A stretch of 64,000 nucleotides of DNA from a virus (IMGVR_UViG_3300029374_000001:128001-192000), one strand, 5' to 3'. Positions 2,970 through 48,972 are shown, numbered from the stretch's first letter. Notes: generated by a model from the letters alone, not told the origin. A program made the numbers and translations.

Positions 2970-3012
2970 TTGTAATCTAATATTTTTGAAATTATATATT
3001 ATAGAGATGAAA
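2970..3012 (+). promoter_or_regulatory. promoter-family copy P1: TGTAATCTA (2971-2979), T-rich spacer, TATATATTATA (2994-3004), GAGATGAAA
   Basis: One of at least nine copies of the same extended motif found upstream of genes on both strands. It is followed by the imperfect palindrome TATTGGTG..CGCCAATA. Confidence 0.5.
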
Positions 3013-3229
3013 TAAGGGAAGTAGGGAATATCGTTATTGGTGTCTCCGTCGCCAATACAATCAGGCCTATGAAACTTATTTCATGCTCCTTAAAGAGATT
3101 ATGGAGAATTGTATTATATTGGATGCCTTTCGTCGTGGGGTAATAACTGGTATAAGACAGTTCTCTATAATCTCAACTAATTTATATATTTCACAAAAAT
3201 TATTTTTATATATCAAAAGGAGAAGTATT

Positions 3230-3346
3230 ATGAGTTTCAGTACCGAATGGGTAATTAGATATCTAGTATCTGTATGTATAGCATGTGTGTTATTTGCTAT
3301 TCCATTTATGATTGAAGTATTGGTTTTACGATATTTCTTTCGATAA
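3230..3346 (+). CDS. possible 38-aa single-TM membrane peptide
   Basis: Internal ATG of ORF 3083..3346 with RBS AAAGGAG 8 nt upstream. The peptide MSFSTEWVIRYLVSVCIACVLFAIPFMIEVLVLRYFFR is strongly hydrophobic. Weak call. Confidence 0.3.
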   Translation: MSFSTEWVIRYLVSVCIACVLFAIPFMIEVLVLRYFFR

Positions 3347-3425
3347 AATAAAGAGTATAATCTCTTTTATTTTTTGTCTAAAACTCTATACTTACAAGCC
3401 AGAACATACCATTAAACGTTCATAT

Positions 3426-6400
3426 ATGAAAGGAGGAATCATTTTGCCAAAATTACCTATAGTAAAAAATTACTTAAAGAATGTAGCTAAATCTGTTAAG
3501 TATGTTGCCATTAATGAAGTACGAGAAGCATTTCCAATGCCATTTAGTATGGCAGAAGCAAATGCTGATCTGACTCATGAAGCCAGAGCTATGTTCAGAA
3601 ATAAAGGCAATATCAAAAGAGTACAAAACCAATTCTTACAGAGTGATGTATTTAAAGCTGGTAATGAAATTTACAGAAACAGCATGAGCTCTATTAAGAC
3701 TGGTAAGTTCTATGATAAAGCCAGATCTGATAAAGCAGATAATGCATTCTTTAAGAAAATGATGGGTGGAGAAGATTTTGATTTTGATCTGAGTGAAGAT
3801 ATCAACGATGTTGATACCGAATCTCAAGATGATAGTCAGGCTTCTCTGGACAGTTTAGGTGATGATTTAGATAATCTTGGATTAGGAATTGATTCCAGCT
3901 TAAAGACAACTGCATCTGCTATTTCTGCTACTGTTATGGATAGTGCTAAGTATACTTCCGAAACAGTGAAGAATACAGCAGCTATTTCTTATATGCAGTC
4001 TTTAAGAACGATGAAAGTATTAGAAGCGGGATTTTCTTCCGTCAGTGCCGGAATGAAAAATATCATTAAATTTCAGAATGAACGCTTAAATACCCATATC
4101 CAGAATGCAACCAAATTCTTTGATACTTCTACCAATCTTTTAACAGAGCAGAATGCTATGATGAAAGAAATGCTGGAGATGCAAAGAAATCTCTATAACT
4201 CAACCAGAAATGGAAATATTAATAGAAGAGAATCTCATAATGCATATAATGATATTATGGGATTTGGTGGTGCTTTTGATGCCAAAAAATATCTAAAGAA
4301 TATCAAATCTAATATAATTAATTCTGCCGAGTTCTCTCCTTTCCAAATGTTATGGGATATGAAAGATCTATTGATGGCAAATCCATTAGAGTTCGTTGTA
4401 TCTGGTACCCTAATTAATTTAATGGGTGGAGATAAGGTTAAGAGACAATTAGGCAAACTTCAAAAGACTATGAGTGGTCTATTTGGCCATTTCTTAAACC
4501 AGATGGACAAATGGTCTAATGAAGGTGGTATTAAAGGTTTCCTAGGTTCTATATTAGGGATTAATCAATCTGAGAAAGCCAGAGTTGACACAGCAAATTT
4601 TGAACGTGGAGCTATGCAATTTAATGGCATTGCTCAGAAAGCGATCACTGATGTAATTCCAGGATATTTAGCTAGAATCGAATCTGCTTTAACCGGTCAA
4701 GAAGAACGTTTCTATGATATGAAGACTGGTCGGTGGACAAATGTAACCGGAATACACAAACAGTTTAGTTCCAGATATCATTCATCTGATAATGCTGGTA
4801 TGGATGAGATTACCAATGTATTTAAGAAAGTATTGAGCAATACAGATCTTAAGAATATCAATGGTAATTCTTATTCTCAGGAAGAAGTTTCTAAAATTGT
4901 TAATGTAGTCTTAAATGGTATATTGAAAAATAATGGTTCATATAAAGATTTTGATAATGCCAAAGATTTCTTTAAACAGTTTGGATATACAACAGGAAAC
5001 TCTAAGAGAGATAATAACCTGGAAGATTTTGTTAGAGCGATTGCTATTAACTTAAATCATTCTACCCGAGCTGGATTGGTTCATGATATCCGATCCGCTA
5101 AAGGTGCTAAGAATAACTTAGCCAATGATATATCTAATGATCCATATGATTTGATGAGAAAACTCATGGATAATGGATTAGGTGGATGGAAATATGCAGA
5201 TCGAGCTGTTGATGATTTATCTTATGGGTACACAGATTCATATGAAGAACGTATGTATAGTGGTGGAACTGGTGGTAGAGGGCGTCGTAATAAGAGAAAA
5301 GCACAAAAGCTGTCTCCTGGACCTTCATTAACTACTAAATATGTAGCTCCGACTTCTGTAAAGAAAAACGACTTCAATGTGTTTGCTACGTTTGATATAG
5401 ATGATATCAATGCATTCCCAGAAGGCAGAGATCTAATCAAATATATAACAGACCTGGATCATGTAAGTTCTATTAGCGGTATGAATAAATCTGTAATTAA
5501 TTTTATTAATAAGATTACAGAATTTGGCATATCTAGCTATCCTAATAACTCTTTTGAAGAGCTGATTTATTATGTATTGAATGGTGGAGACGAAAGCTTT
5601 AAAGCTATAAGAAAAGCGGCTACATCATTTTATGCTTTACCTATTCCGGTCAGAGTATTCTTAGAAGAGTTATATTATAAGATTCATCCAAAAGATAAGA
5701 TTACCTCCAGTGAAATGGCAGCCAAAGAAGCTGCTAAGGATGATGATTATGAAAATAATAGTAAGACTTTAGGCGATTACAAAGGTAATGGTTTCTTAGA
5801 TAAACTGAAACGTGCAAAAGGCTTTGATAAGTTTGGTGTTATCAAAGCATATACACAAGACCTAGCCAAAACCCCAATGCATGCCATGGCTGGTATTATC
5901 GCTAAAGTAGACAGTTTAATTTATACAGCATTCTTTGGGGATAAGAGAGTCAAAGATGCTAATGGAAAAGAAATCACTGGATTCATTCAACGTATTGGTT
6001 ACGAAATCGGTACTACCTTTACTAAAGCTAGAGATTGGTTGAAAGAGAAATTATTTGGAGAAGGCTTTGGACGTAAGTTTAGAGAAGGAGCCACACAATT
6101 TGGTCAAAGAATGTTTTCTGGAATTAAGAGTTCTTTAGGATCATTCTATAATGAAGTTGTAGGTTCTGAAAATGCGGCCGATGATGTGATCAGCAATCAG
6201 GACGCTTCCAAAATCAATCTTCCTGGGAAAGCAAAAGGTATGGGATATGTTCCTCATACTGGATTATATATGCTTTCTAGAGGTGAAGCTGTTGTACCAT
6301 CTAAAGATAATCCAGATAATCCATTTAGAGGCTCTGCTTCTATAGCCAGAGATATGGCTAATGAAAAAGCTGTTGGAGCCAGCATGGGCATTAATGTTGT

Positions 6401-9400
6401 TCATGGATATGGTAAAGGAACTGGAAAACGTAAATTAGCTAAAGCTAAAAAGTTATCTAGCGCTGATACAGAAATTCATGCTACCAATGTAGTTGTTTCT
6501 GCAGATGGAGAAGGATCTTCTGAAGAAAATAAGAGTATATATAGTAAAGCTTGGGAATCTTTAAAGAAACAATATCCTGCTGCTCTTGGTGAAGGTACAG
6601 CAACAGCTTTAGTGGGTGGATTAATTGGTGGTCCGTTTGGATTATTGATTGGTGCCGGACTAGGTGCTGCTAATAATATACTGAAAAGTAATGAAGCAGC
6701 TAGCGAATTGTTATTTGGAGATACCAAGAAACTTAGTATATATGGTAGAATAGGAGGAGGGCTAACTAAACTTCTTCCTAAATCTATGCTTGCTAAAATA
6801 GAAAAAACTAAGAAAACGGCTACTGATATAAAGAACTTTGGTATTGGTGGTGGTGTACTTGGATTGGCTTCTGCTGCTCTTGGTGGACCGGTAGGTTTAC
6901 TTGGCGGTATGATGATTGGTGGAGCTGTAGGTTGGCTTCGTAACAATGCAGAATACCAAAATAAAATGTTTGGCAGAACCATATTCTCTAAAGATAAGTT
7001 TAATTTATCTAAATGGCTGAAAGAACATCCTAAACTTAAGAAAATGGGTATAGGTGGTGTAGTAGGCGGATTTATTGGTGGACCATTTGGTATACTTGGT
7101 GGTATGGCTGCTGGTGCTGCTATAGACTACGTTTCTAATTCCACCAAATTCCAAGACTTCTTATTTGGACCTCGTAAAAAAGACGTTAATGGTAGAGATA
7201 CCAATGAACGCGATTTCGAATCTGGGTTCTTAGGTAAGTCTTTGAATAAGATGATTGCTCCTATAAGAAATTTTGGAGATAAATTTGCAGATTATGTTAG
7301 AGAAGGTTTTGTAGAACCTATGCAAAGAGCTATAGTTCCTGTGGGTAAAGCGATGCAAGTAGGAACTAAAAATACATATAAACTAGTAGAAAGAATAATG
7401 AGTACCATATTTAGTCCTAAGTTAAAATTACCATTCTGGAAAAACTTTGGTAGATGGATGGAGACTAATAAGAAATCTAAATTACTAACGGGTATGCTTG
7501 GTGGTGGTGCTGCCGGATATATGACTGGTGGTCCATTGGGAGCTATTCTCGGTGGTGTATTAGGAGCCGGAGCTCATTATACTGGCGTAGATAAATGGAT
7601 GGTTAAAGCAGGAGCGTGGTTAGGAAAACGTCCTGGCTGGTTATTGGATAAAGGAACTAATCGTCTAAATAAATGGCTGATTAATAGTGGCAATGCAGAT
7701 CATATGACCGCTAAAGAGCGTATTAATTTTATGGATACTCATGGGTATTCATATACAGGTTCTAAAGGTCAAGCCATGCAATCTAATGATCGTCTTATGA
7801 TGGATTCTTCTTTAGCTGAAATTAAAGTCATGAAAGATTATGTAGACTTAATTCAAATGGTTAAGTCTGGTAAGAAAATGACTAAAGAAAAAGTTGCTGC
7901 TAAAGTTATTAAGATGATCAAAGATTCTCCATTAGATGATCCAAGTCAAAGAGAAATTGTTGATTTAATTAGAGGCATTCAGGAAAATTCTACAGATAAG
8001 GCAGCAATATCCGCTTCAGTATCCAGTATTATTGGAATTATTAATGAATCTGATATTCCTGATCATAAGAAACAAGATCTGATTTCTAAAGTGCAAGATG
8101 TCGTTCCTTTGGTTGCTCAAATTGGAGCAGTATCTGAAGAAGCTAAGAAAAGAATATCTAATATTAAAGGAATAAAATATACAACTAAGAAAGGTAAGAC
8201 TGGATATTTTAATTTAGACGCATATGAAGGTGATCTTAGTAAAGCATCTTCTTACCTGGAAAAAGAAGCTAAAGCTAAAATAGAAGCCGGAGATACCAAA
8301 GAAAATGATCCAGAAGTTATGCTTTTAGATGAGTCTAAGATTCAGAATCAATTGACTAGAGAATCTAATGATCTTTTAAGAGTTATTGCCCAATTAACTG
8401 CTGGAGAAAAAGTCGATCTGAATGGTATTGGTAAATATAGTAGTTTCGGTTTAGCTACAAGCGCATCTGCATCTGGTGTAGAAAGCGGAACTAAAGTTAG
8501 ATCTGATTTAGATGCTATTGGGCGTATGCAAACTGTTATTGACTTTAATAGAAAATTCAATACAGTCTTTGATGCTACAAATGATGATGTTTATAAAAAG
8601 CATTTCTCTAATAAAAATAATTTAGAGTTTGTTATGAATTATAGTGGCCATATATCACCACGTATGGCTAACTATATTCGTATGCTTCCTTCTAAAATTA
8701 CTAAAGAAGAATTTGAAAGACTTGTATACATAGACAACCATACATCTATTTCAGAACAAAGTATGGATATGGTGGCCGCTGTTCTTCGTCTTAAAGATAG
8801 TGAATGGAAGAATAGAATTAAACCATTGGCTAAACATGGATTCCCATTAACTGGAAGCTTACAGCAGATCATAGATATGGATAAAGAAGATTATGATCAT
8901 ATGCTGAAAGAATTTACGGTTGCTCATAAAGCTATAGAATCCACTGAACTTGGTAAAACGGTTACTCAAGAAGATTGGGTTAAGAATCATAAAGATATCA
9001 ATCGTTTTAATACTGGGCAGCATAGTCGAATTACATTATTCAATGATCAAAATTCTACTACAAAAACTGGATTGAGTGGAGCTGCAGCAGGTATGTTCTT
9101 AGATCCTACTGGCGTTTCTGCTGTAGCGGCCGCTGCTATGTATGCGCTACAGAAAATTATACCTAGTATGGATTTCTTCCAGACTCACAATGCTGGAGAT
9201 CATGCGCAAGAATTAGCAGAAACCATTAAGGGTAAAGCCAGAGGTGGATATATTTCTAAATCTGGTTTATATATGCTATCTAAAGGTGAAGCTGTCCGAG
9301 GCTTTGCTGGTGGAACATCTACTGGTAAAGTCATTGAAATGGTTGATGGTCATCCTAAAGAATTTAAATATACATCTGAAGGCAGCTTAGAAGAAACCAA

Positions 9401-12293: not shown

Positions 12294-12306
12294 TATACTA
12301 TAATAT

Positions 12307-12339
12307 GCTTGGGAAGCTCAAATATTTGAGCTTCCCAAC
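12307..12339 (+). terminator. rho-independent terminator (GCTTGGGAAGCTCA-aatatt-TGAGCTTCCCAA followed by a T-run)
   Basis: Long perfect stem directly after the giant gene's stop, followed by TTATATTAATTTTTT. Confidence 0.6.
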
Positions 12340-12380
12340 ATTATATTAATTTTTTACTGAGAGAAAAGAAAGGAGTAATC

Positions 12381-14522
12381 ATGCAGCTGATCGTAAAATC
12401 AAACTCATTAGATATACATGAAGATTGCAACTTTTCCTCAAAAGTTATACATAAACTAAGCAAAGATGATCCCATTATCAAATTAGCTAATGTAGGATTA
12501 TGGATGAAAATATCATATAAAGAATATACTGGATGGGTATATCCATTTAATTCTAAAGATGGGTTTTGTATTGTAGATAAAGATCTTATTAAAGAGAATT
12601 CTATTAAAGTAGGATCTGTATGCACAATCAAATCTAATACAGGAGACTTAGTCACATATAGGGATAAACATAAACGAGTCTTAACGGTTGTAGAAGATAA
12701 GACCAGTTTATATTTTTCTATTGTAGGGGAAGCTTCTAATGGATATGTATATATTAGAAGCAGAACTTCTGATAAGCAATACGAAGTTAAGAAATCAGAT
12801 ATCACTATTATAGAACAAAAAGCAGACCATAAATTTTACAGTTCTAACGCTGCTGAACCAAATGGTGGCGGTGGAGGTAAAATACCAGAAGATAAATCGG
12901 TTACTACTAAAGCGGCTGATTTTTTTAATCAACGGTTTTCTAATAGTGATATAGAAAAAATTCAAGATTCTGTAAACAGCTATTTTTATTCAAAGAACTC
13001 TGAATCCTTAGATAATGTGGTCACTTTAACTAAGATTAATTTGAATTCGCTTAGATCTATCTTTGGTATGCCCTATCAATATCTTCCAGTAGCTGATTTA
13101 AGAGTAAAAAGTACCGGGGTAGGATATGAATCATCCACTACTCCTTTAACAGATATTGCTGCTATAGGTATTAAATATAGAGAAAAGATTTTATCTCGTA
13201 TGCCATTCTGTATCTTCATGCCCGGTATGGTTGATTTCATGCCTAATTATAATTCTGCTGAAAAAGAGGATATATTGAAAGGCGTCGTTGATGAAAATAG
13301 TACCTGGAATGGTTTAAGAAAAGTTGCTGAAGGAAAAACCAGAGGTTCTTATTATAACTTTTATCCTGCATATTCTTTATACTATAGATACGTGAATGCT
13401 ATTTGTAGAATGGCTGCTATCTTTATGGGTGTAGGAGATCGAGTTGTATATGGAAATACTCCTCTCAGCAAGTTTGACTGGAGATCATTATCTCCAGACA
13501 CAATTTCTAAATCTTCTTTTTATCATGGCTCTGTTTTGTACTATCTGAATACAGAAAACCAGATATCAGAAAGTTTCAGCAACTCTACTACACAATCTCA
13601 ATTAGCACAAAAAACAAATGCGGTATCCGAACAAGCCAGAGAATTAATGTTCCTATCTAATACGGCAGTTGATGTAACTGCAGCCGCTTCAAAAGTAGCT
13701 AGTAGTGCTGTTAGCTCTGGGCTAAATAATACACAGCAGTTGTTTGAGAATATCAAAGCCAAAGTAGGAAGCGGTATGAGTTCTTCTCAGGGTGCTGTAG
13801 CCGCTATATTGAATGGATTGCATAATACTATCGCTGGTTCTAAAATGTTATTCCCAGAACTTTGGCAAGATTCTCAGTTCAGTAGAGATTATTCGGTCAA
13901 TGTTAAATTTGGGTCTCCAGATAATGACCCATTATCTATTTATCTGAATATTATTGTTCCACTAATTCACACGGTTTGTTTAGCAGCTCCTAAATATACT
14001 GGCCCAAATACATATACTGCTCCATTTTTGGTTAGAGCATTCTATCAAGGATTCTTTAATGTAAATATGGGTATTATTACAGATCTTTCTATTACTAAAG
14101 GTAATGAAGGTGCTTGGACATATGATAACGTTCCAACTACATTAGAACTTCGTATTAGTATTAAAGATCTTTTTGGAACTAACTTTATGAGTATGGGACA
14201 GAATGAAAATAATATGGATCTGAATGTACTATCTAATCAACCATTTGTAGATTATATAGCTAATACTTGTGGTATTAATATAGACGAACCGGATTATCCA
14301 AGAGCATGGAAAATGATGAAGATGATCCTTAGTCCCGAAGCTAAGGTTAAAGATACAGTTCGGTCTGTACGGGAAGCGTTCTTTGAAACTTATACACAAG
14401 CAACTGCTCGTACATATGGTTCTATTATTGGATTGCATCCTGGAAATATTCGATTGTTTGATCTTGTTACTATTGGTACGGGTCAAGCCACTCAAGCTAT
14501 ATTAAATAAGATAAATAAGTAA
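12381..14522 (+). CDS. hypothetical protein (713 aa), probably virion-associated given its position after the tape-measure-like gene
   Basis: Long ORF with RBS AAAGGAG. No catalytic motif recognised. Confidence 0.6.
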   Translation: MQLIVKSNSLDIHEDCNFSSKVIHKLSKDDPIIKLANVGLWMKISYKEYTGWVYPFNSKDGFCIVDKDLIKENSIKVGSVCTIKSNTGDLVTYRDKHKRVLTVVEDKTSLYFSIVGEASNGYVYIRSRTSDKQYEVKKSDITIIEQKADHKFYSSNAAEPNGGGGGKIPEDKSVTTKAADFFNQRFSNSDIEKIQDSVNSYFYSKNSESLDNVVTLTKINLNSLRSIFGMPYQYLPVADLRVKSTGVGYESSTTPLTDIAAIGIKYREKILSRMPFCIFMPGMVDFMPNYNSAEKEDILKGVVDENSTWNGLRKVAEGKTRGSYYNFYPAYSLYYRYVNAICRMAAIFMGVGDRVVYGNTPLSKFDWRSLSPDTISKSSFYHGSVLYYLNTENQISESFSNSTTQSQLAQKTNAVSEQARELMFLSNTAVDVTAAASKVASSAVSSGLNNTQQLFENIKAKVGSGMSSSQGAVAAILNGLHNTIAGSKMLFPELWQDSQFSRDYSVNVKFGSPDNDPLSIYLNIIVPLIHTVCLAAPKYTGPNTYTAPFLVRAFYQGFFNVNMGIITDLSITKGNEGAWTYDNVPTTLELRISIKDLFGTNFMSMGQNENNMDLNVLSNQPFVDYIANTCGINIDEPDYPRAWKMMKMILSPEAKVKDTVRSVREAFFETYTQATARTYGSIIGLHPGNIRLFDLVTIGTGQATQAILNKINK

Positions 14523-14536
14523 ATTAAACAAAACAT

Positions 14537-14566
14537 AATCTTGAAGAGCATTAATGCTCTTCAAGA
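14537..14566 (+). terminator. hairpin terminator (ATCTTGAAGAGCATTAATGCTCTTCAAGAT)
   Basis: Perfect 13-bp palindrome immediately after the stop of the 12381..14522 gene. Confidence 0.55.
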
Positions 14567-14590
14567 TTTATAGTATCAGGTGGTAGATAT

Positions 14591-15298: not shown

Positions 15299-15299
15299 A

Positions 15300-15689: not shown

Positions 15690-15702
15690 AAAGCAATAGA
15701 TA

Positions 15703-15730
15703 TCCATAGACTCATATGAGTCTATGGATA
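15703..15730. terminator. bidirectional hairpin terminator (ATCCATAGACTCATATGAGTCTATGGAT) between convergent genes
   Basis: Perfect palindrome between the + gene ending at 15689 and the - gene ending at 15742. It belongs to the CCATAG..ATAT..CTATGG hairpin family. Confidence 0.6.
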
Positions 15731-15741
15731 ATTTTATATGT

Positions 15742-19119: not shown

Positions 19120-19317
19120 TATAAAACCTCCTATGTATATTGATTTACTTAGATGTCAAAAACAAAAAATAAATACCCTCTAAAGATTACCGACAGTATT
19201 TAATCTAATGTAAATTCGATCAAATACCATAAATGCACTTAATAGATTACCTTAGTACACCGGTAATCTTTAGCTTTTATAAAATAATCTGATGAATCTC
19301 TAATAGATTATTTTATC

Positions 19318-19632: not shown

Positions 19633-19665
19633 CTTCAGATCTATAATATATAACTAATGATTCTT
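19633..19665 (-). promoter_or_regulatory. promoter-family copy (minus strand): TTATATATTATAGATCTGAAG
   Basis: Reverse complement of + strand 19641-19651 (TATAATATATA) carries the family core upstream of the minus gene 19318..19608. It lies in a divergent intergenic region. Confidence 0.4.
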
Positions 19666-19715
19666 TTAATACCACAGGCAAAACATTAAAGTAACATAGA
19701 GGAGGGTCGACATAT

Positions 19716-29299: not shown

Positions 29300-29398
29300 T
29301 TGTTCTCCTCCTTTGAGAAACAGTGTTAAAACAATTTTAATGATACGATTATCATTACGATATTGTTTTAACTAAAATAATATTTGAAACGCATAAAG

Positions 29399-29437
29399 CG
29401 TCTCATACCTATAATATATAATTTAATATAGATTTAA
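29399..29437 (-). promoter_or_regulatory. promoter-family copy (minus strand): AAATCTATATTAAATTATATATTATAGGTATGAGACGC
   Basis: Reverse complement of 29401-29437 matches the family consensus, including the downstream (G)TATGAGA. It is followed by the palindrome GAGACGC..GCGTTTC. Confidence 0.5.
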
Positions 29438-30504
29438 CGGAATCTTGATAAGATTCGATTTTGCTCATCTATACTAAATGCATCATTAATGGAATCTTTA
29501 TGGACTCCATTGGAATTATATATAAAGATGTATAATGCGCCATCTATCGTATTCCGAATTAACGTATACTTATTGGCTATACTGGATAGATCAATATCAT
29601 ACCAATATCGATACATAATAATGTCTTTTACATTATATCCAATTGTATTTCGCAATAAAGTATATAGGGCTTTATCATTCATCATATACGTCTTATCATA
29701 AGGAGATGCTTCATCTTTTTCTTCTGCTAAGACTTTTGTTTGAAATTCCATATTGATGATATTGTTAGAACAATCAACAATAAATAGAAAGTTAATAGCT
29801 TCTAAGAATGTTTTCATATTCATATATTCAGATATATCAACAATACCATTCGTTTCATGCTTAAGTAGCTCTGCTACTTTTTGTAAACAAGCATTGTACT
29901 TATTAATTTCATACTTCCCTAATAAAGGGATAATAGTATCTATCGTATCATCAAAGTATAACATAATGAATCGATAATGTTTTAGATTGAATTCATGATA
30001 AGGAATCGTTTCCATAAACTCTTCTATCTCATACGGATCATAGTTATAATAGTCCTGAATAACTCCAGATTGTAATAGAATATCAGAAACCATTTTCTTA
30101 TCTTTAGGATTTCGAAAAGCATCTTTATATTCCGTAGGACACTTTTGATACTCTTTCATAATTTCGATAGGATGGATGACTGTAGTTACTCCATCATAAT
30201 TCGAATAAGCACTTTCTTCATTGGATGAATATTCTATATAGAGATCATCCATACGAAGTTTACTATTAGCTTGTAAAATTCCTATCTGCAGTAATCCAGT
30301 AGGAATCAATCTTGTATATTTTCTGTTTAATAGTTCTATGGATAAAGTATAAATTTCTTTAGTTCGTTCGTCTTGTACTGTCACTTTGCGTCTATTTCTG
30401 TCTATAATACGAATCATATGATCTTCTGTAAACCATCTGGTTCCAATATTATATAAAAAGTTGTATCGAGTTTTACCTGTTCTACAACGAACCTGTTCCA
30501 GCAT
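29434..30504 (-). CDS. hypothetical protein (356 aa)
   Basis: ORF with RBS GGAGAAAAG. Confidence 0.6.
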   Translation of the reverse strand: MLEQVRCRTGKTRYNFLYNIGTRWFTEDHMIRIIDRNRRKVTVQDERTKEIYTLSIELLNRKYTRLIPTGLLQIGILQANSKLRMDDLYIEYSSNEESAYSNYDGVTTVIHPIEIMKEYQKCPTEYKDAFRNPKDKKMVSDILLQSGVIQDYYNYDPYEIEEFMETIPYHEFNLKHYRFIMLYFDDTIDTIIPLLGKYEINKYNACLQKVAELLKHETNGIVDISEYMNMKTFLEAINFLFIVDCSNNIINMEFQTKVLAEEKDEASPYDKTYMMNDKALYTLLRNTIGYNVKDIIMYRYWYDIDLSSIANKYTLIRNTIDGALYIFIYNSNGVHKDSINDAFSIDEQNRILSRFR

Positions 30505-30589
30505 ACTTTTCTCCTTTTGAAATAATAGTGTACTCCAAGCTATATAGCTTGGAGTACTTTATAGTTCATTTCATTATAATAATATATAA

Positions 30590-32434
30590 TTACAGATTCG
30601 TTTTGAAAGTTAGCAGTTTCTTGATCCAATCATATGCATGGCCTAATGTATAATTAGAGAACTTAACTTTATCATTATTAAAAGGAGAATCTTGATAGGT
30701 CTTGATAATATCAAAATCTGGTTCTTCTTTCAATACAATTTCAGAATACTTATTGATATCGTTTAGTATCTTAGAACGAGCTTTGTTTAGTGTTCTGATT
30801 TCTGTAGGCTTGGTTTTTCTATCATGAATCTTCTCTTCCAAGAGTATATTCATATACCAAAGTTTACAGATACAGTACTTCATTCCAGTTGTATTCTTAT
30901 TTTTCTCATACATCTTAAGAGCTAAATGAGTTCTGGAATATTCTCCTTCAAAATTAATTCGTCTTCCTTTAGAGATTAAGAGATCTCCATCTTTATTAAA
31001 TTCTACGGGGAATTCGTTGGTCATAACTGCTTCTAACATAGACGATTTGAATGGGATCTTCATCATCTTTTTGTCCAGATAATATCGGAAATATTTGTAT
31101 CGGTTGTTTAATGAGAAGAACTCTCTAAATCCGCCCATATAGATTTTATATAAGAACAGATGTATCGGAATATCAATCTTATACTTTCTATATAGCTCTA
31201 CTATAATAGCATTCAGATATAACTTAAGAGCTCCTATATTATTAATATCTATCTTAGCAAAGCCAGTATTGTATAGCGTATCTTGGGTTACGCCTTTAAG
31301 TATATCATATTTAGGAATCTCAAAGACAATAAACTTTGTAGACTCTGGTAAAATATCTATTCTTTTATTGAATGTGTATACTTTATTATTCTGGTCTATA
31401 CCAATTTCTATAGCATTTTTAGTTTCGTTAATTGTCTGAACTAGATATAGCCGTATAATATATTGGTTATCTCTATTTAACTCGCAGAATAAAAAGTAGG
31501 AATCGGGTGAATTGTATTCTGGGCTGATATTCTGTTCACTTCCAGATAAAGACTTCATATAATCCATTACATTGATAATATGAACATGATCGATAATCTG
31601 ACTCATATATTTATATGCGCCTTGTTGTATTTTAGCCAGCTTATCTAAAGTTATGGAAATTTCAGGACTCCATCCCAATTCAATCTGGCCCTGTTTATCT
31701 CCCTTTGCCTTGAGATCCAAAATCACATCCATGTACGAATTTCCATATTTAGTTGCATAGGATGACATATTTTTTCCAGTAATATATTCGTTCCATTTCT
31801 GCCAGAAATCATAAGAGATTACATCAGTTTTTCCATATTTTGGTTCTCCATTAGAATTTAGATATAATATTTTTGCATCTTCTGATCTAAACATGGGACA
31901 CTGACAATTATAATTGGTAAAGATATTTTCTGACTTATATTCTGATTCTAAATCTTCTTTAATAATATCGGTATGATAATCTAAATCAAAATCAGAAGCA
32001 TCTTCTTGGAGATTACACAAGAATTCTTTTCTGTCTATTCTTTGCAGAAACATTTTGTCATCGATCAGATGTCTCATTAAGAATACTCTGTCTATCGGAT
32101 CTATATTATAGAATCTAGGATCATATTCTACATAGTCTTTGATTACTTCTGCACTATAGAATTGATGTCTCATATCCTCATAGCGTTCTTTATTCTTCTT
32201 ACCAAAGATACGTATGGATATATCATCAGAATCTTCTTGTTGAGAATAAGGCATTTTTAAGAAGCGATTATAATCCATCTCCAAATCATTCGGTCTTTTA
32301 TAGGAAGAATATAAGAGAGTGATATTAGAGCTTAGCCTCCAGTCTTTGACTTGTTTATCTTGTTCAGACAGATCAGCATTGCTATTTCTTATTTTAAAGG
32401 CTTCATTAAATGGATCGTTGTTTGTTGAATTCAT
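30590..32434 (-). CDS. hypothetical protein (614 aa)
   Basis: Long ORF with RBS AGAGGTGATCAATAG upstream. Confidence 0.6.
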   Translation of the reverse strand: MNSTNNDPFNEAFKIRNSNADLSEQDKQVKDWRLSSNITLLYSSYKRPNDLEMDYNRFLKMPYSQQEDSDDISIRIFGKKNKERYEDMRHQFYSAEVIKDYVEYDPRFYNIDPIDRVFLMRHLIDDKMFLQRIDRKEFLCNLQEDASDFDLDYHTDIIKEDLESEYKSENIFTNYNCQCPMFRSEDAKILYLNSNGEPKYGKTDVISYDFWQKWNEYITGKNMSSYATKYGNSYMDVILDLKAKGDKQGQIELGWSPEISITLDKLAKIQQGAYKYMSQIIDHVHIINVMDYMKSLSGSEQNISPEYNSPDSYFLFCELNRDNQYIIRLYLVQTINETKNAIEIGIDQNNKVYTFNKRIDILPESTKFIVFEIPKYDILKGVTQDTLYNTGFAKIDINNIGALKLYLNAIIVELYRKYKIDIPIHLFLYKIYMGGFREFFSLNNRYKYFRYYLDKKMMKIPFKSSMLEAVMTNEFPVEFNKDGDLLISKGRRINFEGEYSRTHLALKMYEKNKNTTGMKYCICKLWYMNILLEEKIHDRKTKPTEIRTLNKARSKILNDINKYSEIVLKEEPDFDIIKTYQDSPFNNDKVKFSNYTLGHAYDWIKKLLTFKTNL

Positions 32435-32451: not shown

Positions 32452-33120
32452 TTATTCTTCCAAATCATCATAGATTTCAATATCTTCTACATTTTCGAAG
32501 AATCTGGATCTACGAAGAGATTTTTTATTCATAGCAAAGTATCCCATTGATTGGTCTTCCATAATAACGATATCAGAAGAATGACCTTCTAATAAATCAG
32601 AAGCTTCCTGATTAGAGATTTGGGTATATCGATTTGCCAATTCCGGATTAACCAGATAGATAAACTTATTTAATACAGTATAAGCATCATTTTCTATCAT
32701 GGCTCTCATCTCATTGAAGTTAACTTCTTGAAAATCTTCGTCAAATTCGATTTGATTATCTTCCAAGAGATACTTACCAGAGATGGTTTCATATATAAAT
32801 TCTCTTGGTACTTCTGTATCTACAGAGTTTAAAATAGTCATCAATCTCTTATTGGGATCTTTACCCATATACTTAAACATACGAACATTTTTATCTTTGA
32901 GATAATCAGAAGATATTTTTCGCAATACACCATCATTATCTGTAGTGATAATATTGTCCGTGATCATATCATCTTGTACACAATACTGAGGTCTAAGCAT
33001 AGTAGGAGACTGTAATTTAGAAACAAAGATAACATTGGTTGTTCCTATAGGACCTCCTATTCCAGCTAACCCCATAGTTTCGTTTATTTTACTCATTTTC
33101 TTCTCACCTACTTTACCCAT
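32452..33120 (-). CDS. hypothetical protein (222 aa)
   Basis: ORF that overlaps the upstream gene by 13 nt, suggesting translational coupling. Confidence 0.55.
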   Translation of the reverse strand: MGKVGEKKMSKINETMGLAGIGGPIGTTNVIFVSKLQSPTMLRPQYCVQDDMITDNIITTDNDGVLRKISSDYLKDKNVRMFKYMGKDPNKRLMTILNSVDTEVPREFIYETISGKYLLEDNQIEFDEDFQEVNFNEMRAMIENDAYTVLNKFIYLVNPELANRYTQISNQEASDLLEGHSSDIVIMEDQSMGYFAMNKKSLRRSRFFENVEDIEIYDDLEE

Positions 33121-34382
33121 CCATCAAACTTAATTTCATTTTTCTTAAGTTTACATTTTTCATGTACAATCTTATTCAAATTAGTAATTATAGCACTATA
33201 AGAGAGCTTATCTTTTACGTTGATCGTATACTTACCATCTTTAATAATAAATCTTTTAGCTTTTAGGAAATAGAATTGCTCCGATTTGTATTCATTCCAC
33301 CAATCTGGATCTATATGTAGAGTATCTTTTACATATAATGGAGTAGCTCCATGAGTACAGAGATATAAAGCATAATACAGTGCTTTCTTCTTATCATCGA
33401 AGCATTCTATTTGTTCTATCTTTCTCATAGGAATATCAAATACTCCATTATGATAGGGATATATAAAATAGACTTCATCGACTTGGTTATAATCATACCA
33501 CTGATCGTCATCTATTTCTGCTTTCAGATTAGGAATAAATCCAGATACTACTTTATCTGTACCTAAGATATTTCGAATAGATTCATGATGTATATCCGTA
33601 CTTTCATTAATTTTGATAATTGCTTTTCTATTATCATTAGAATCATCTAACAATTGCATTTTATATTCATACATGAATTCTAAGAGTTGATCGAATTGAT
33701 TATTGGTCAAACGAATATAGTTATATTCTCCCATATTCGTAATCATTTTTTCTTTAGCTACTTGTTTAGCTCTATATTCTGGCATACGAGTTTTATTGGG
33801 ATTATTTCCACCATCTTTAATATCTCCTACTAAATTAAATGGAAGTAATAAGAAGTCTAATATCCAGAAATGTTTTTCGCCTTTATATTCATATTCCAAT
33901 GTAGGTCCAGGCATCATAATATCATCCGGATCCATATGAAATACTTTATCTAAGAACTCTAAGAATTTCTTTTCATATGAGCCTGTATATTCTTTAATCT
34001 TACCATTATCAAATCTATATATACCAGAAATACCTCGATTGGCTAACATCTTTTTCTGATGTTCTGGATCATCCAATATGGTTGTCTTACCATAGACCTT
34101 CATCATATTGTGTTTATACATGCTACGCAGTTTGTCTCTACATTCTGATCTTCCACAGAGTCTTTTATATTTCTGAATATTTTCATCCCATTCGGTTCTG
34201 CGTTTACATACTACACAAGTACCATGATTCTTATGATGAATAAAATCAAATAATACTCTGGCTGCACTATAGTTTTCTGGAATCATATCTTCATGTTTAT
34301 GATCAATATGATCAATTATTTTATCTTTGGTTTCTCTATAGGTACAAAAAGGGCATTTTATTTTTCTATCAGAAGCCATCAT
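33108..34382 (-). CDS. zinc-finger protein with a PD-(D/E)xK-like nuclease motif (424 aa)
   Basis: N-terminal CPFC...HIDHKH and CVVCK...CGRSEC. Central motif FWILDFLLLPFNLVGDIKDGG resembles a D...D/ExK restriction-endonuclease-fold signature. Weak inference. Confidence 0.5.
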   Translation of the reverse strand: MMASDRKIKCPFCTYRETKDKIIDHIDHKHEDMIPENYSAARVLFDFIHHKNHGTCVVCKRRTEWDENIQKYKRLCGRSECRDKLRSMYKHNMMKVYGKTTILDDPEHQKKMLANRGISGIYRFDNGKIKEYTGSYEKKFLEFLDKVFHMDPDDIMMPGPTLEYEYKGEKHFWILDFLLLPFNLVGDIKDGGNNPNKTRMPEYRAKQVAKEKMITNMGEYNYIRLTNNQFDQLLEFMYEYKMQLLDDSNDNRKAIIKINESTDIHHESIRNILGTDKVVSGFIPNLKAEIDDDQWYDYNQVDEVYFIYPYHNGVFDIPMRKIEQIECFDDKKKALYYALYLCTHGATPLYVKDTLHIDPDWWNEYKSEQFYFLKAKRFIIKDGKYTINVKDKLSYSAIITNLNKIVHEKCKLKKNEIKFDGWVK

Positions 34383-34774: not shown

Positions 34775-34802
34775 TTGAGAGAGACTAATATTAGTCTCTC
34801 TC
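34775..34802 (-). promoter_or_regulatory. leader palindrome or operator (TGAGAGAGACTAATATTAGTCTCTCTCA)
   Basis: 28-bp near-perfect palindrome immediately downstream of the promoter-family copy at 34799..34840, in the 5' leader of gene 34527..34757. Confidence 0.4.
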
Positions 34803-34840
34803 ATCTATATAATATATCATTTCAGAAGATTTAGATTACA
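34799..34840 (-). promoter_or_regulatory. promoter-family copy (minus strand): TGTAATCTA-aatcttctgaaatga-TATATTATATAGATGAGAG
   Basis: Reverse complement of 34801-34840. It contains both the upstream TGTAATCTA element and the TATATTATATA core followed by GATGAGAG. Confidence 0.5.
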
Positions 34841-35344: not shown

Positions 35345-35366
35345 ATTTTAAGGAGGAATATTTACG

Positions 35367-37136: not shown

Positions 37137-37195
37137 TTCATCTGCAGTCGGCTTTTAGAAGAGGATTTGACATTATCTCTGCTAAAGACCAGCCA

Positions 37196-37507
37196 ATGGG
37201 ATTTATCCATGCTCTGTACTATTATCAAGTACAGAAATCCATAGATGATGCTAAGAAAGAAAAAGAGAAGAAACAAGAAGAAGAACGATCTAAACGTCCT
37301 ATCACAAATTATAAGATAGGAAATCAGAATAGATCTGATGTAGATATGAAGTATGGACATATCTCAGATCATTCTCCCTCTTCTATAATAGAACAAAGAA
37401 GAATGAGAGAAGAATCTAGACGGAATCAGAATTCTTCGAGTACAACCTCCTCAAATGTCAGTGATGTAGATATGGAAGAAGCTTTTGAAGATGTAATGGG
37501 AGGGTAA
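37196..37507 (+). CDS. hypothetical basic and serine-rich protein (103 aa)
   Basis: ORF. Low-complexity K/E/R/S composition. Confidence 0.45.
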   Translation: MGFIHALYYYQVQKSIDDAKKEKEKKQEEERSKRPITNYKIGNQNRSDVDMKYGHISDHSPSSIIEQRRMREESRRNQNSSSTTSSNVSDVDMEEAFEDVMGG

Positions 37508-37509
37508 TT

Positions 37510-37824
37510 ATGACATTACCACAATTTGCCAAGATGTTAGACATTTCTGGCAAACCAGAAAACATTGGTAATCACTTTGAATCCTGTGTTGCTGTATATA
37601 GAATACTCAATCAGTATTTCAGTCAGGATGAAATTGAGATTGCTATTGAATCTATGGAAGCTTCCAAAGAGATATTTAAAATTAAGATTATTCCAGTTAA
37701 AAATATAGAAGACTTATTGAAGCTGTATGAGAATATACAATTAGAACTATTCTCCACCCAGGTTCATATATCTTCTAAGATTACAAAAAAGAAAGAGCTT
37801 ATTATTAAAACAATTAAAAAATAA
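37510..37824 (+). CDS. hypothetical protein (104 aa)
   Basis: ORF with RBS GGGAGGG, coupled to the upstream gene. Confidence 0.5.
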   Translation: MTLPQFAKMLDISGKPENIGNHFESCVAVYRILNQYFSQDEIEIAIESMEASKEIFKIKIIPVKNIEDLLKLYENIQLELFSTQVHISSKITKKKELIIKTIKK

Positions 37825-37855
37825 AAGAGACTCATACGAGTCTCTTTTATTTTCT
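37824..37855. terminator. bidirectional terminator (AAAAGAGACTCATACGAGTCTCTTTT followed by ATTTTCTTT)
   Basis: Palindrome between convergent genes 37510..37824 (+) and 37870..38247 (-). Confidence 0.6.
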
Positions 37856-37869
37856 TTGACCGATATGGA

Positions 37870-38247
37870 TTATGAATTCATTGCTTTCAAATCCATCTTC
37901 AATCTCGTATTCTCGAGGTCGAGTTCGCCGAGCTTTTCGTTAAGTTCGGTATTTTCCTTATCGAGCTTTTCAACATCTCTATCAAGTCCCTCGATATCGT
38001 CTCGAAGTAAACGATTTTTCTCTCTGAGCTGGTTGATCTCATTGGCCATCTTTCTACTTTGGTCATTCCGCACTTCCTGGTCGTTAATCATTTCACGGAA
38101 TGTGGTAACAATGTTCATTACATCCTTACCATTTTGAACCATTTCTTCGACAGTCATTTCGACGTTAACTTCATCTAATTTGAAGTCAAGATTAACGCCC
38201 TCGATATTCTTGCCGTTGATTGTAAAACCTTTTAATGTGAATTTCAT
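37870..38247 (-). CDS. coiled-coil protein (125 aa)
   Basis: ORF with RBS AGGAGGACTACACATC. Heptad-rich sequence (LREKNRLLRDDIEGLDRDVEKLDKENTELNEKL). Confidence 0.55.
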   Translation of the reverse strand: MKFTLKGFTINGKNIEGVNLDFKLDEVNVEMTVEEMVQNGKDVMNIVTTFREMINDQEVRNDQSRKMANEINQLREKNRLLRDDIEGLDRDVEKLDKENTELNEKLGELDLENTRLKMDLKAMNS

Positions 38248-38328
38248 GATGTGTAGTCCTCCTTTTGTTTGACCAAATTTTTCCAGGTATCATAGAAAAT
38301 TTGATAACTGGCGATATGCATTTCATGA

Positions 38329-38375
38329 TTATACATATCCTTTTCTCACCTATATATTATATAATTTAGAAAAAG
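38329..38375 (-). promoter_or_regulatory. promoter-family copy (minus strand): TGTAATCTA-actttttctaaat-TATATAATATATAGGTGAGAAAAGG
   Basis: Reverse complement of 38329-38375. The core is TATATATTATATA at 38341-38353. It lies upstream of minus gene 37870..38247 and is followed by the palindrome GATATG..CATATC. Confidence 0.45.
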
Positions 38376-38452
38376 TTAGATTACAAAATTGGATTTTTGA
38401 TGAATTCTACATTTAGGTAATGTAAGGTTAGTATATAAAGGAGGTCTTATCG

Positions 38453-46180: not shown

Positions 46181-48892
46181 GTGCGACTATATAGATTGGA
46201 ATTAAATAATTATATTGGAATCTATAATGGTATGGGGCTAAACCATATCTGTATAGATTTCTCTAAATGTATGAATAATATCACGGTAATTAAAGGAGAT
46301 AATGGTTCGGGTAAGTCAAGTTTATTTAAAGCGATCCATCCGTTTAGTGATACAAACTATTATCTCTTACCAGGAGTACAAGCATCTAAGAATATTGTAT
46401 ATCAATTGAATGATGGATCTATTCTGGATATTACTTATGTATATCCGATAGATCATAATGGAAACAGAAAATCTACCCAATGTACGGTTATCTATAATGG
46501 AAAAGATGTTAATACCAATAAGAATGTCAATGATGGAAAATCTATCATATGCGATCTCTTAGATATTGATATGGGGTTCTTAACATTGGCACAATTATCT
46601 TCTGATGATAGAGGGTTAGCGGATAAGAATCCATCCGAACGTAAGAAGTTTATCAATAAGAAGATATCGGAATTAGATGCATTCAATGATATCTATAAAA
46701 AGATATCTAAGAAGTCTAATCAGTTAAAGGCTATGGTAAACTCCTTCAATACTAAGTTAGAATCTATTGGAGATACTAAGATTATTGCTACCAATATCAA
46801 ATTGATGAATAAACAGTTAGAAGATTTAGATGAACAGAAAACTGTACTATTGGTAGAAATGTCTAAAATACAAGCGAAGTTAGAAGAACTCTCTAAGTCT
46901 TCTAACTTTAATCCAGATTCTTATAGAGAATTGAAACAATCTATCTATGAATTAAAACAGAAGCTATCCAGATATAATATTGATGAGTCAATTACTGAAT
47001 CTATGAAATCAGAAGAAGAATTATCTTATCATACACATAAGAATCAATTAGAAAATTTACAAAATATGTATGATAAGCGTTTATCTGAGGTATCCTCGTA
47101 TAGAGATAGGGTAGAGTCGTTAGAAATTCGTTTAAGCTCAATGGGTGATCTCAAACTCATTGATTCGTATGAGTTTAGGATAGCAGAAATCAAGAAAAAA
47201 CAAGAAGAGTTTAATTCAATGTGTCATAAACATGGTTTTGATAGACATGAAGAAATATCAGAAACAGAATATGATTATATATATGATACAATGTCTACCA
47301 TTTCTCATTATATCTCTATGATGAGAGACAAGTATGATTATAAAACATTGAAACAGGCTATCGAGTTATTCTGCAACCAAGTTTACGGAAAACCATATGC
47401 TCGAAAGACATCTAAGAATGAATTAGATAGTATGAAAGATAGTCTGTCTAATATGAAGATGATCTTAGAGAAACAGGAGTTCTTTAAAGAGCAATCCAAA
47501 GATTTTTCTATGATACCCGAAGATTGTCCTCATAAACATGATTGCCCATTTATAAAGACAATCATGAATGCTCATAATAGTATATTACCAGATTCTGATT
47601 ATGATAGATTATCTAAACAGATAGAAGATTTAACCAAAGATATTATTAAATATAAAGCACAGGTTGAAGAAGAAGATATTATAGAACGGTGTCTATCAGA
47701 TATGATTCATATTTTTGGATCTAATACAGAGATTATGAAGCCATCTTGTATGAAATCTATGGATAAGTTTAATATTCATCATATTATGTCTAAAGAAGAT
47801 TTTAGGCCTGCATTAGAATCTTTATTATTATCTTCTAATGCCAGTTGGTATATTTTAGACTTCCAGTATTATGATAATATCAGAAACTTCTTTATAGAAT
47901 CTAAGTCTTATCAGAGCGATATAGAAAGACTCCAGAAAGAATGTAACTCATTACGTTCTAATCAAGAATTAGCTGAGTTCATTACTAAAGAATTGTCTGA
48001 ATCTAAAGAGAAACTACAATCTTTAAATACAGAAATATCTGGAATGTATCGGAAGATTAAAGACTTGCAATCTACAATTGATAATCAGAAGCTTCACATA
48101 GAGCATATGGAACATACTCTGGAAAGAAAGAAGCAAAAAGAAGAATATACGAAACAATATACTCTTCTTACAGAGGAATATAACAAACAACAGGAAAATA
48201 TGAAAGAGTATGATATACTGGATAAAGAATTATCTGATAAGAAAGTTGTATTGGATGATTTGGTATCTCATCAAATTCCTGCGCTCACGAAAATGATCAA
48301 TGAGTCTAAGTATAAGATCGTTCTATATAACGATTATGTTAAAGAGTATAAAGAATATAGATCATCTTATGAGAAAGTAGAAACTATTAAGAAGTATTGT
48401 TCGCCCACAACAGGTATACAGACAGTCTATATGAATATGTATATGAACAATATCTTAGGAATATCTAATGAAATACTATCCTCTTTCTTTGGTGGAGAAT
48501 TCATGCTACAACCATTCGTTATTAATGAGAAAGAGTTCCGTATGCCAGTATTAGGATCCGGTATTATGAATGATGATATTTCTAGCATGTCTACATCTCA
48601 AATTTGCATGATCAGTATGATTATTAGTTTTGCATTATTAAGTAAATCCTCTTCTATCTATAACATAGTTAAGTTGGATGAATTGGATGGCGGACTGGAC
48701 ACCAATAACAGATTAGTATTCTTTAACTCTCTAATATCTTTAATGAACAATATGAATTTCCAGCAGTGCATTATGATCTCTCATAATACGGAACTCAATA
48801 TGAGCAATATGGATATTATTATATTAAAGAATTCTGACCCAACTATGACCGTAGATGGTAATGTTATTTATGACTATGCAACAGAAGCATAA
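46181..48892 (+). CDS. SbcC/Rad50-like (gp46-like) recombination/repair ATPase (903 aa, GTG start)
   Basis: N-terminal Walker A in VIKGDNGSGKSSLFKAI. Long central coiled-coil. C-terminal signature/Walker B/D-loop in IVKLDELDGGLD. RBS AGGAGG upstream of the GTG. No Mre11/SbcD partner is evident in the flanking genes. Confidence 0.7.
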   Translation: MRLYRLELNNYIGIYNGMGLNHICIDFSKCMNNITVIKGDNGSGKSSLFKAIHPFSDTNYYLLPGVQASKNIVYQLNDGSILDITYVYPIDHNGNRKSTQCTVIYNGKDVNTNKNVNDGKSIICDLLDIDMGFLTLAQLSSDDRGLADKNPSERKKFINKKISELDAFNDIYKKISKKSNQLKAMVNSFNTKLESIGDTKIIATNIKLMNKQLEDLDEQKTVLLVEMSKIQAKLEELSKSSNFNPDSYRELKQSIYELKQKLSRYNIDESITESMKSEEELSYHTHKNQLENLQNMYDKRLSEVSSYRDRVESLEIRLSSMGDLKLIDSYEFRIAEIKKKQEEFNSMCHKHGFDRHEEISETEYDYIYDTMSTISHYISMMRDKYDYKTLKQAIELFCNQVYGKPYARKTSKNELDSMKDSLSNMKMILEKQEFFKEQSKDFSMIPEDCPHKHDCPFIKTIMNAHNSILPDSDYDRLSKQIEDLTKDIIKYKAQVEEEDIIERCLSDMIHIFGSNTEIMKPSCMKSMDKFNIHHIMSKEDFRPALESLLLSSNASWYILDFQYYDNIRNFFIESKSYQSDIERLQKECNSLRSNQELAEFITKELSESKEKLQSLNTEISGMYRKIKDLQSTIDNQKLHIEHMEHTLERKKQKEEYTKQYTLLTEEYNKQQENMKEYDILDKELSDKKVVLDDLVSHQIPALTKMINESKYKIVLYNDYVKEYKEYRSSYEKVETIKKYCSPTTGIQTVYMNMYMNNILGISNEILSSFFGGEFMLQPFVINEKEFRMPVLGSGIMNDDISSMSTSQICMISMIISFALLSKSSSIYNIVKLDELDGGLDTNNRLVFFNSLISLMNNMNFQQCIMISHNTELNMSNMDIIILKNSDPTMTVDGNVIYDYATEA

Positions 48893-48897
48893 AGTAT

Positions 48898-48931
48898 ATC
48901 AGAGACTCATAAGAGTCTCTGATTCTTTTTT
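48898..48931 (+). terminator. rho-independent terminator (ATCAGAGACTCATAAGAGTCTCTGAT followed by TCTTTTTT)
   Basis: Perfect stem directly after the SbcC-like stop, followed by a T-run. Confidence 0.65.
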
Positions 48932-48972
48932 GTAATCTAAGTTCTTTTTATTTATATATTATAGATATGAGA
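48931..48972 (+). promoter_or_regulatory. promoter-family copy P6: TGTAATCTA-agttctttttatt-TATATATTATA-GATATGAGAGAAG
   Basis: Core at 48953-48963. Followed by the palindrome GAGAAGATATAG..CTATACCTTCTC. Upstream of small gene 49031..49204. Confidence 0.5.

Follow-up and report, generated by a model that had tools for sequence, protein, structure and literature searches.

Which enzyme reads a short, AT-rich element that recurs in front of gene clusters on both strands of an uncultivated viral genome? The element lies in IMGVR_UViG_3300029374_000001:128001-192000, a stretch of 64,000 nt that is referred to here as the window. A sequence-only reading had described it as a family of promoters of about 45 bp, which could be recognised either by host sigma70 or by the virion RNA polymerase (RNAP) of a giant phage. 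Our analysis favours, with a probability of roughly 0.8 and by analogy with phage AR9, the view that the copies are early promoters of an uncultivated AR9/PBS1-like jumbo phage, read by a multisubunit RNAP that would be packaged in the virion and injected. The element most likely represents a known type of signal in another phage and not a new type of signal.

The core motif and its counterpart in phage AR9

Eleven copies of the element, named here by the first base of their core, are present in the window. Aligned on that core, they read (T/G)ATA(T/A)(T/A)AT, five free bases and then T-G-A, copy 40537 being the sole exception at the start triplet with C-G-A. All eleven fit (T/G)ATA(T/A)(T/A)AT-N6-G, and eight carry the exact form TATATTAT-N5-TG. 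The exact string TATATTAT-N5-TGA was observed 8 times against 0.51 expected from dinucleotide-preserving shuffles (n = 100), none of which reached 8, and the two-part form TGTAATCTA-N15-TATAWWATA, which includes a 9-mer farther upstream, was observed 5 times against 0.00 expected. The octamer TATATTAT itself occurs 29 times in the window; T-G stands at the right distance in 8 of the 29, and these eight are all intergenic in a window of which 89.5% is coding and 10.5% intergenic.

Every copy is intergenic and co-directional with the next gene, whose start codon lies 28-105 nt away, in agreement with the proposal of a promoter family. The make-up of this family differs, however, from the earlier description. 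The conserved element is indeed present at each site listed before, but the full form of about 45 bp is not, since TGTAATCTA was found in five long copies only (class I), the other six being core-only copies. The earlier list missed 46128 (+) and 30586 (-), and the placement at 30-100 nt before genes was slightly too narrow. The spacer between the 9-mer and the core, given as 13-15 nt, is fixed at 15 nt. The element placed at 38329-38375 exists as well, but that range leaves out its upstream 9-mer at 38377-38385.

In AR9, early promoters mapped by differential RNA sequencing (dRNA-seq) and primer extension follow a consensus quoted as AAATATATATTAT-(6N)-G(+1) (Lavysh et al. 2017, PMC5312081). 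As quoted from the same study, AR9 early transcription is insensitive to chloramphenicol and independent of the host RNAP, and must come from an injected virion polymerase because no new protein synthesis is needed (PMC5312081). The core found in the window is the AR9 early promoter core at an equal distance of 6 nt to G(+1), as seen when the two consensus sequences are aligned (AR9, AAATATATATTATAata.TGatA; window, AaTTATATATTATA.a.aTGA), and the window copies conform to the AR9-type pattern of (AAA)TATATATTAT, 6 nt and a G start. The likeness is not limited to the core TATATATTAT and its distance to the start, but includes a frequent T at -1, a related block at -38 to -29 and the intergenic position in front of early-type genes, those for homing endonucleases among them. 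The genes downstream of the window copies encode an SbcC-like nuclease, an HNH and another endonuclease, TasA (tasA) and small proteins without known family; in AR9, an early promoter also precedes an operon with an SbcD-like gene. Some features set the window apart from AR9 and PBS1: A(+2) is invariant, about 45% of the copies have a sharper upstream block, an invariant TGTAATCTAA, and most copies have a hairpin at the transcript start, whereas the AR9 leaders examined are unstructured and carry no hairpin.

Genome transcription in AR9/PBS1-like phages relies on two phage-encoded polymerases, and a gene for a virion polymerase subunit was identified in the window. The open reading frame (ORF) 38453-39985 encodes an RNAP beta' subunit with about 30% identity to the subunits of AR9, PBS1, Listeria phage LPJP1, Bacillus phage BpSp and Staphylococcus jumbo phages. 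Its AR9 counterpart, gp144, is annotated as the N-terminal part of the virion RNAP beta' subunit. A second part, read at 40319-40528, joins the ORF as the gp144 ortholog, giving a gene for the virion RNAP beta' N-terminal subunit at 38453-40528 (+), with exon 1 from 38453 to ~39924 and exon 2 at ~40322-40528. This ortholog, together with the core and its 6-nt distance to G(+1), lends weight to the earlier suggestion that a giant-phage virion RNAP reads the element.

Near-identity searches with 41 kb of the window against 50,697 phage records returned no close phage record at the DNA level, and the identity of the phage was established through protein searches only (PHROG, Pfam, tblastn). The gene content seen in these searches is that of a jumbo myovirus: genes for a sheath and a terminase are present, as are those for a lysozyme/M23 protein of 2993 aa and for many virion proteins. 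The terminase shares 40% identity with its counterpart in Bacillus phage BpSp, and this value and the identity of the RNAP subunit indicate, as far as protein comparison goes, that the window derives from an uncultivated and distant member of the AR9/PBS1-like group.

The late promoters of AR9 carry the motif AACA-(6N)-T-A/G. This late motif is recognised on the template strand, and only in uracil-containing DNA. Matches to the AR9-type form AACAT-N5-TA number 18 in the window, of which 12 are intergenic; in nine cases a co-directional gene begins 10-82 nt downstream, usually a virion gene such as that for the sheath. Examples are found at 12337-12348 (+), 19682-19693 (+), 53370-53381 (-), 54167-54178 (-), 55661-55672 (-), 61475-61486 (-) and 61518-61529 (+). 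The match in the core, the gene for the RNAP subunit and the late motif in front of structural genes argue together for early promoters of a virion RNAP and not for promoters of host sigma70.

Counted from the predicted G(+1), the anatomy of such a promoter would begin with an upstream block at about -38 to -29, which is TGTAATCTAA in five copies and a looser (G)T(A)TTAAA-like sequence in most others. A T/A-rich spacer, AAATTA at -20 to -15 and the near-invariant core TATATTAT at -14 to -7 would come next, followed by five free bases and T(-1) G(+1) A(+2). Initiation would take place at G without a host sigma factor and directly after DNA entry, and the early products would be small proteins of unknown function, nucleases (SbcC-like, HNH and another endonuclease) and TasA. 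The early promoters of phiKZ-like phages (phiKZ, 201phi2-1) are similarly long, AT-rich, conserved near -10 and read by a multisubunit virion RNAP, with conservation reported at -10, -20 and -30 (PMC7598289; PMC11512511). They differ in sequence and in phage family, and the likeness is one of description only.

The eleven copies and their leader hairpins

Among the class I copies, that at 2971..3009 (+) consists of TGTAATCTA (2971-2979), a 15-nt T-rich spacer, the core TATATTAT (2995-3002) and a predicted start G at 3009; it has no 5' hairpin and stands before a small ORF (3083/3230-3346) and the 2993-aa lysozyme/M23 gene. The copy at 41531..41595 (+) has its upstream element at 41531-41539, the core at 41555-41562, the predicted +1 at 41569 and a hairpin at 41572-41595, and precedes the tasA-like gene 41652-42527. 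At 48931..49001 (+), the upstream element (48931-48939) and the core (48955-48962) lead to a predicted +1 at 48969, a 5'-terminal hairpin (48969-49001) and a small gene with its ATG at 49030. The copy at 34777..34840 (-) heads a minus-strand cluster that runs from 34757 down to ~30590; its upstream element is at 34840-34832, its core at 34816-34809 and its predicted +1 at 34802, where a perfect 11-bp hairpin begins (34802-34777, z -4.6). The fifth, at 38313..38385 (-), has the core variant TATAATAT (38361-38354), with the upstream element at 38385-38377, the predicted +1 at 38347, a hairpin at ~38339-38313 and the next gene at 38247-37870.

Three of the core-only copies were assigned to class II. 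That at 29386..29442 (-) shows GTTAAA, an AR9-like form, upstream of its core (29418-29411), a predicted +1 at 29404 and a hairpin at 29404-29386 (z -3.3), and is followed by the gene 29299-28556 and those downstream of it. That at 44844..44901 (+) has the core at 44868-44875, the predicted +1 at 44882 and a hairpin at 44882-44901 (z -3.1), with the genes 44949-45323 and 45343-46056 next. The third, at 19636..19674 (-), combines the upstream block GGTATTAAAA with a core at 19650-19643 and a predicted +1 at 19636; it lacks a hairpin, and a Shine-Dalgarno sequence and the ATG, 28 nt downstream, open a 96-aa gene (19608-19318). The deviant copy at 40513..40568 (+), with C for T at -1, has the core at 40537-40544, G at 40551 and a hairpin at 40551-40568, and is part of an HNH endonuclease cassette. 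The two copies added here lie at 46104..46142 (+), where the core GATATTAT (46128-46135) is followed by AAGAA-TGA, a predicted +1 at 46142 and the SbcC-like gene 46181-48892, and at 30530..30610 (-), where the core (30586-30579) within TATATTAT-TATAA-TGA leads to a predicted +1 at 30572, a strong hairpin (30557-30530, z -6.9) and the gene 30504-29434.

Folding of positions +1 to +50 of each copy placed the first base of a stem at G(+1) itself in five of the eleven (48969, 34802, 29404, 44882 and 40551) and at +4, +9 and +16 in three further ones, while three copies are without a hairpin; z is below -3 in four copies. The stem persists in 15 paralogous or orthologous versions of the 48955 module, with compensatory changes (for one pair, A-U in 7 versions and G-C in 6), and the loop is hypervariable. 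The hairpin in 8/11 copies would shield the 5' end of the mRNA from 5'-end-dependent decay, and such protection is its most likely role, judging from known systems. Stem-loops that stabilise mRNA in this way are found in the E. coli ompA leader and among the 5' stabilisers of B. subtilis; as in these, the hairpins of the window are stable and leave the 5' end with hardly any single-stranded overhang or none. The hairpins might alternatively act in attenuation or terminate the upstream gene, and three of them pass a loose terminator scan. The family does not fit the hairpin promoters of the N4-type virion RNAP, whose recognition element is a DNA hairpin upstream of +1: the hairpins here lie downstream of +1 and are lacking in 3/11 copies.

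Terminator-like hairpins stand directly upstream of copies 48955 (48898-48923), 46128 (46075-46098) and 41555 (41505-41522), which makes these three sites composites of a terminator stem-loop and an early promoter as in the PeSL cassettes of T4-type phages; the divergent copies 34816 and 38361 have no upstream terminator hairpin. The unit of about 160 nt around 48955, comprising terminator, promoter, hairpin, Shine-Dalgarno sequence and first codons, recurs elsewhere in related genomes with 85-92% identity.

The upstream block and the competing explanations

When IMG/VR was scanned for exact matches to the two-part pattern, 59 loci were obtained, about 48 of which come from related jumbo contigs of 216-260 kb and from fragments of several metagenomes. 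The related contigs are 84-96% identical to the window where they overlap it, and a single 260-kb contig holds at least 11 exact two-part copies. In these relatives the motif is followed by T-G, a hairpin, AAAGGAGGAC (Shine-Dalgarno) and ATG. The 9-mer TGTAATCTA (-38 to -30) occurs 72 times in 475 kb of related DNA and stands at N15 from the core in 69 of the 72, in relatives that were retrieved by a search for the exact 9-mer, so that the in-window copies and the ortholog comparison are the unbiased part of the evidence. That comparison (14 class I ortholog sequences of five promoters) gave 1 substitution per 126 sites in the 9-mer and 2 per 112 in the core, against 31 per 210 in the 15-nt spacer.

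The sole substitution of the 9-mer among the orthologs belongs to the copy of relative L007 that corresponds to window positions 34802-34840. All three blocks of this copy, core and T(-1) included, are changed (TGTCATCTA, TATACTAT and G at -1). It looks like decay after inactivation of the promoter, or possibly an error of sequencing or assembly.

A weaker block, (C)GTATTAAA(A), is found at -38 to -29 in AR9 (16 annotated early promoters, NC_031039.1) and shares with TGTAATCTAA the positions G-37, T-36, A-35, T-33, A-30 and A-29; it is not part of the AR9 consensus in the form quoted from PMC5312081. The core-only copies of the window carry an AR9-like form at this place, with GGTATTAAAA at 19650 and TTAAA in three copies. 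From sequence comparison, the 9-mer thus looks like the strong form of a second block that promoters of this phage group share, and we read it as neither a sigma70 -35 element nor a private operator.

The sequence-only reading had also proposed a dedicated factor site, on the grounds that inverted copies of TGTAATCTA occur at 19120-19317. The 9-mer is absent from that region, which contains three occurrences of the 7-mer GTAATCT/AGATTAC. Two of them (19184-19190 and 19263-19269) lie in the arms of a perfect 13-bp stem, CTAAAGATTACCG/CGGTAATCTTTAG, that closes a structured stretch of ~95 nt on the minus strand (19170-19275, z -4.1) and is followed by a T-rich run, and the third (19244-19250) lies in the enclosed stretch. 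These copies therefore belong to a separate structure, and the proposal is not supported, the more so as the 9-mer proper is tied to the core (69/72 at N15) and hence is not an independent site. GTAATCT as a free-standing factor site or late promoter was rejected likewise, because its excess is explained by the promoter copies and the stem arms at 19.2 kb. The element at 19170-19275 is near-invariant in six relatives despite strong divergence of the adjacent 96-aa gene. It stands between this early gene and an operon of virion genes, which is preceded by GACATCTAAGTA, and its simplest reading would be a terminator/insulator or small RNA, followed by a late promoter.

Recognition of the sites as strong early promoters by the host sigma70/sigma-A holoenzyme, with TTGTAA as -35 and TATATA or TATTAT as -10, had been offered as the other option and is very improbable. 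Many phages do use the host RNAP for early genes, the five class I copies have TTGTAA and TATATA at a distance of 17 bp, and TATTAT at -12 to -7 agrees with TATAAT at 5/6 positions, including A-11 and T-7. However, the 17-bp spacing gives as -10 a TATATA without the essential final T, while TATTAT as -10 puts TTGTAA 21 bp away, and TTG is absent in 6/11 copies. The family does not show a TTGACA-like -35 at 16-18 bp from a TATAAT-like -10 with A2 and T6. Between 29.1 and 49.1 kb, sigma70-like sites occur at chance level (131 against 134.6 expected), and the best 60 of these 131 include 46128 (TTGTCA-18-TATTAT) as the sole family copy, the other ten not being among them. What the copies have in common with sigma70/sigma-A promoters is an AT-rich, -10-like hexamer at -12 to -7 and an upstream TTG-containing block, but spacing and hexamers are incompatible and conservation runs through the start site. 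An invariant 8-mer together with an invariant start triplet is characteristic of promoters read by phage polymerases and not of sigma70 promoters; the copies, with this 8-mer, a fixed N5 and T(-1)G(+1)A(+2), agree with the AR9 virion-RNAP promoter, and the phage encodes a virion RNAP subunit of its own.

With the host holoenzyme set aside as the principal reader, it might still be asked whether TGTAATCTA is the operator of a separate DNA-binding factor, encoded by the phage or delivered with the virion, that marks a distinct temporal subclass of early genes. The behaviour of the 9-mer is all-or-none (it is perfect in 5/11 copies, and variants with 1-2 mismatches are rare in the relatives), it is under purifying selection, and -38 to -30 is a common binding place of activators and repressors. 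Such an operator is nonetheless unlikely: the 9-mer is tied to the core at exactly N15 (69/72) and lacks palindromic symmetry, a related block stands at this position in AR9, class II copies show the AR9-like TTAAA there, and conservation near -30 is also reported for phiKZ-type early promoters (PMC11512511). The AR9 counterpart and the TTAAA of class II argue for one graded promoter element rather than a separate operator. A further explanation, which we hold to be rather improbable, sees the elements above all as scattered cassettes for recombination, each made of terminator, promoter and stem-loop, by which small early genes would be shuffled in the manner of PeSLs, with promoter function in a secondary role. 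It draws on the three copies that directly follow a terminator hairpin, on the ~160-nt 48955 module at other places in relatives, and on the free-standing HNH endonuclease cassette 40530-41483 (+), which lies directly after the intron-containing RNAP gene, carries the deviant early-type promoter 40537 as its own, and is a mobile presence/absence polymorphism because it is missing in two relatives (L036 and L037). Nevertheless, this cassette is the one indel that adjoins copies, others such as 33081-33089 do not, and a homing-endonuclease gene is able to move alone. The small gene after 48955 is retained in relatives and not swapped; an apparent replacement of it was rejected, the gap being due to BLAST fragmentation. 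The PeSLs of T4-like phages (PMC2839356, PMC4122927) resemble the window elements as short modules of a conserved stem-loop and an early promoter, repeated before small variable genes, but they use host sigma70 and their shuffling is backed by many indels, whereas a single suggestive case is available here. A cassette role would in any event supplement promoter function and not replace it.

Early promoters of a virion RNAP remain the preferred reading, and several points weigh against it. TATTAT at -12 to -7 would also serve well as a -10 element for sigma-A, its distance from G being the canonical one, and the host polymerase may make some use of this -10-like hexamer. Copy 2995 lies upstream of the giant virion-associated lysin gene, which is expected to be late, and copy 40537 has C at -1; in AR9, a single deviation from the consensus abolished activity. 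The window contains one virion-RNAP subunit gene only, and the invariance of the 9-mer across relatives is partly there by construction, because these were found through the exact 9-mer. In addition, the enzyme, the start site and the timing are assigned by analogy with AR9 for a phage whose polymerase subunit is only about 30% identical to that of AR9.

A more specific proposal, which we regard as possible but advance tentatively, is that AR9-like early promoters are truly bipartite. The block at -38 to -29 (TGTAATCTAA here, (C)GTATTAAA in AR9) would then be recognised separately, through some specificity determinant of the virion RNAP; two classes of early genes, differing in strength or timing, would follow from the all-or-none form of the block, and the unit of terminator, promoter and 5' hairpin might serve as a portable cassette for expression and recombination.

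Neighbouring elements and what the proposed promoter set offers

The gene of the RNAP beta' subunit is interrupted at 39925-40321 (+) by a group I intron without ORF (Rfam Intron_gpI), which splits the catalytic motif between ...GGDY and DGDQV.... The intron matches the group I model over its full length with 40.7 bits (E 5e-9), a value under the Rfam gathering score; at gathering thresholds Rfam gave no matches in the window, nor did a tRNA scan. It is missing in relatives L036, L007 and L037 and present in L038. The AR9 gp144 gene is likewise broken by introns, which contain homing endonuclease genes (AR9 annotation). In another part of the window, two relatives (L038 7745-8545 and L052 1885-3201) carry an extra 0.8-1.3 kb at ~33081-33089, the junction of ORFs 32452-33120 and 33108-34382 (endonuclease).

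Copy 41555 stands in front of what, by its sequence features, is a TIGR-TasA system (41652-44774, +), that is, a class I early promoter copy followed by tasA (41652-42527) and a dual-repeat array. As defined by Faure et al. (2025, PMC12045711), TIGR-Tas systems combine a Nop/IS110-C-like Tas protein with adjacent 36-nt units made of two alternating repeats and two spacers of about 9 nt. The Tas protein of the window has 291 aa, a Nop/IS110-C-like domain and no nuclease domain; its family, of more than 3,800 clusters, gave profile matches to TasH in PDB (E 2.8e-14) and to an IS110 C-terminal domain protein (E 3e-19). Behind tasA, and separated from it by a terminator-like hairpin (42546-42577), lie 2.2 kb without ORFs in which A(T)TGTA(T/A)CA and A(A/G)TGA(A/G)TCA alternate at a phase of 18-19 nt in at least 107 half-units. 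This corresponds to ~54 units of 36 nt with the repeats ATTGTAWCA and AATGAATCA and spacers of 9-10 nt. The conserved G and C of the repeats change by 0-4% in relatives, compared with 8-14% for the spacers, and the same pairing of gene and array was found in unrelated viral contigs and in human-gut contigs. The array was not detected by Tandem Repeats Finder, and a pattern scan of viral contigs gave mostly chance matches. An interpretation as iterons or a protein-binding array was superseded by the PDB profile match of the Tas protein. TasA has been reported as an RNA-guided repressor; adjacent spacer pairs had no target at <=1 mismatch within the window, with functional configurations no better than controls.

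Two further observations concern other parts of the window. Within the 1026-aa sheath-like gene, at 51980-52496 (-), internal repeats offset by ~126 nt and 71-79% identical produce staggered BLAST matches against relatives, which points to protein domains repeated in tandem. Between the terminase ORF and ORF 56483-57325 (TTG start), 290 nt at 57326-57616 (-) are free of ORFs and contain two copies of GTAATCT; this stretch had no Rfam match even at E <=1 and no intron signal.

The sharp upstream block and the hairpins at +1 are clade-specific refinements of a known kind of promoter, which otherwise conforms to what a specialist would expect. How the virion RNAPs of jumbo phages recognise promoters without a sigma factor is still unexplained (2026 review, PMC13282480). 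In this regard, the lineage described here offers a clean natural set of such promoters, with about 11 in 64 kb and dozens more in relatives, and the sharp block at -38 to -29, together with its weaker homologue in AR9, gives AR9, as a tractable system, concrete positions for mutation. For this uncultivated phage group, the motif offers a means of annotating early operons, and the position of the TIGR-TasA system behind an early-type promoter predicts that it would be expressed early in infection.

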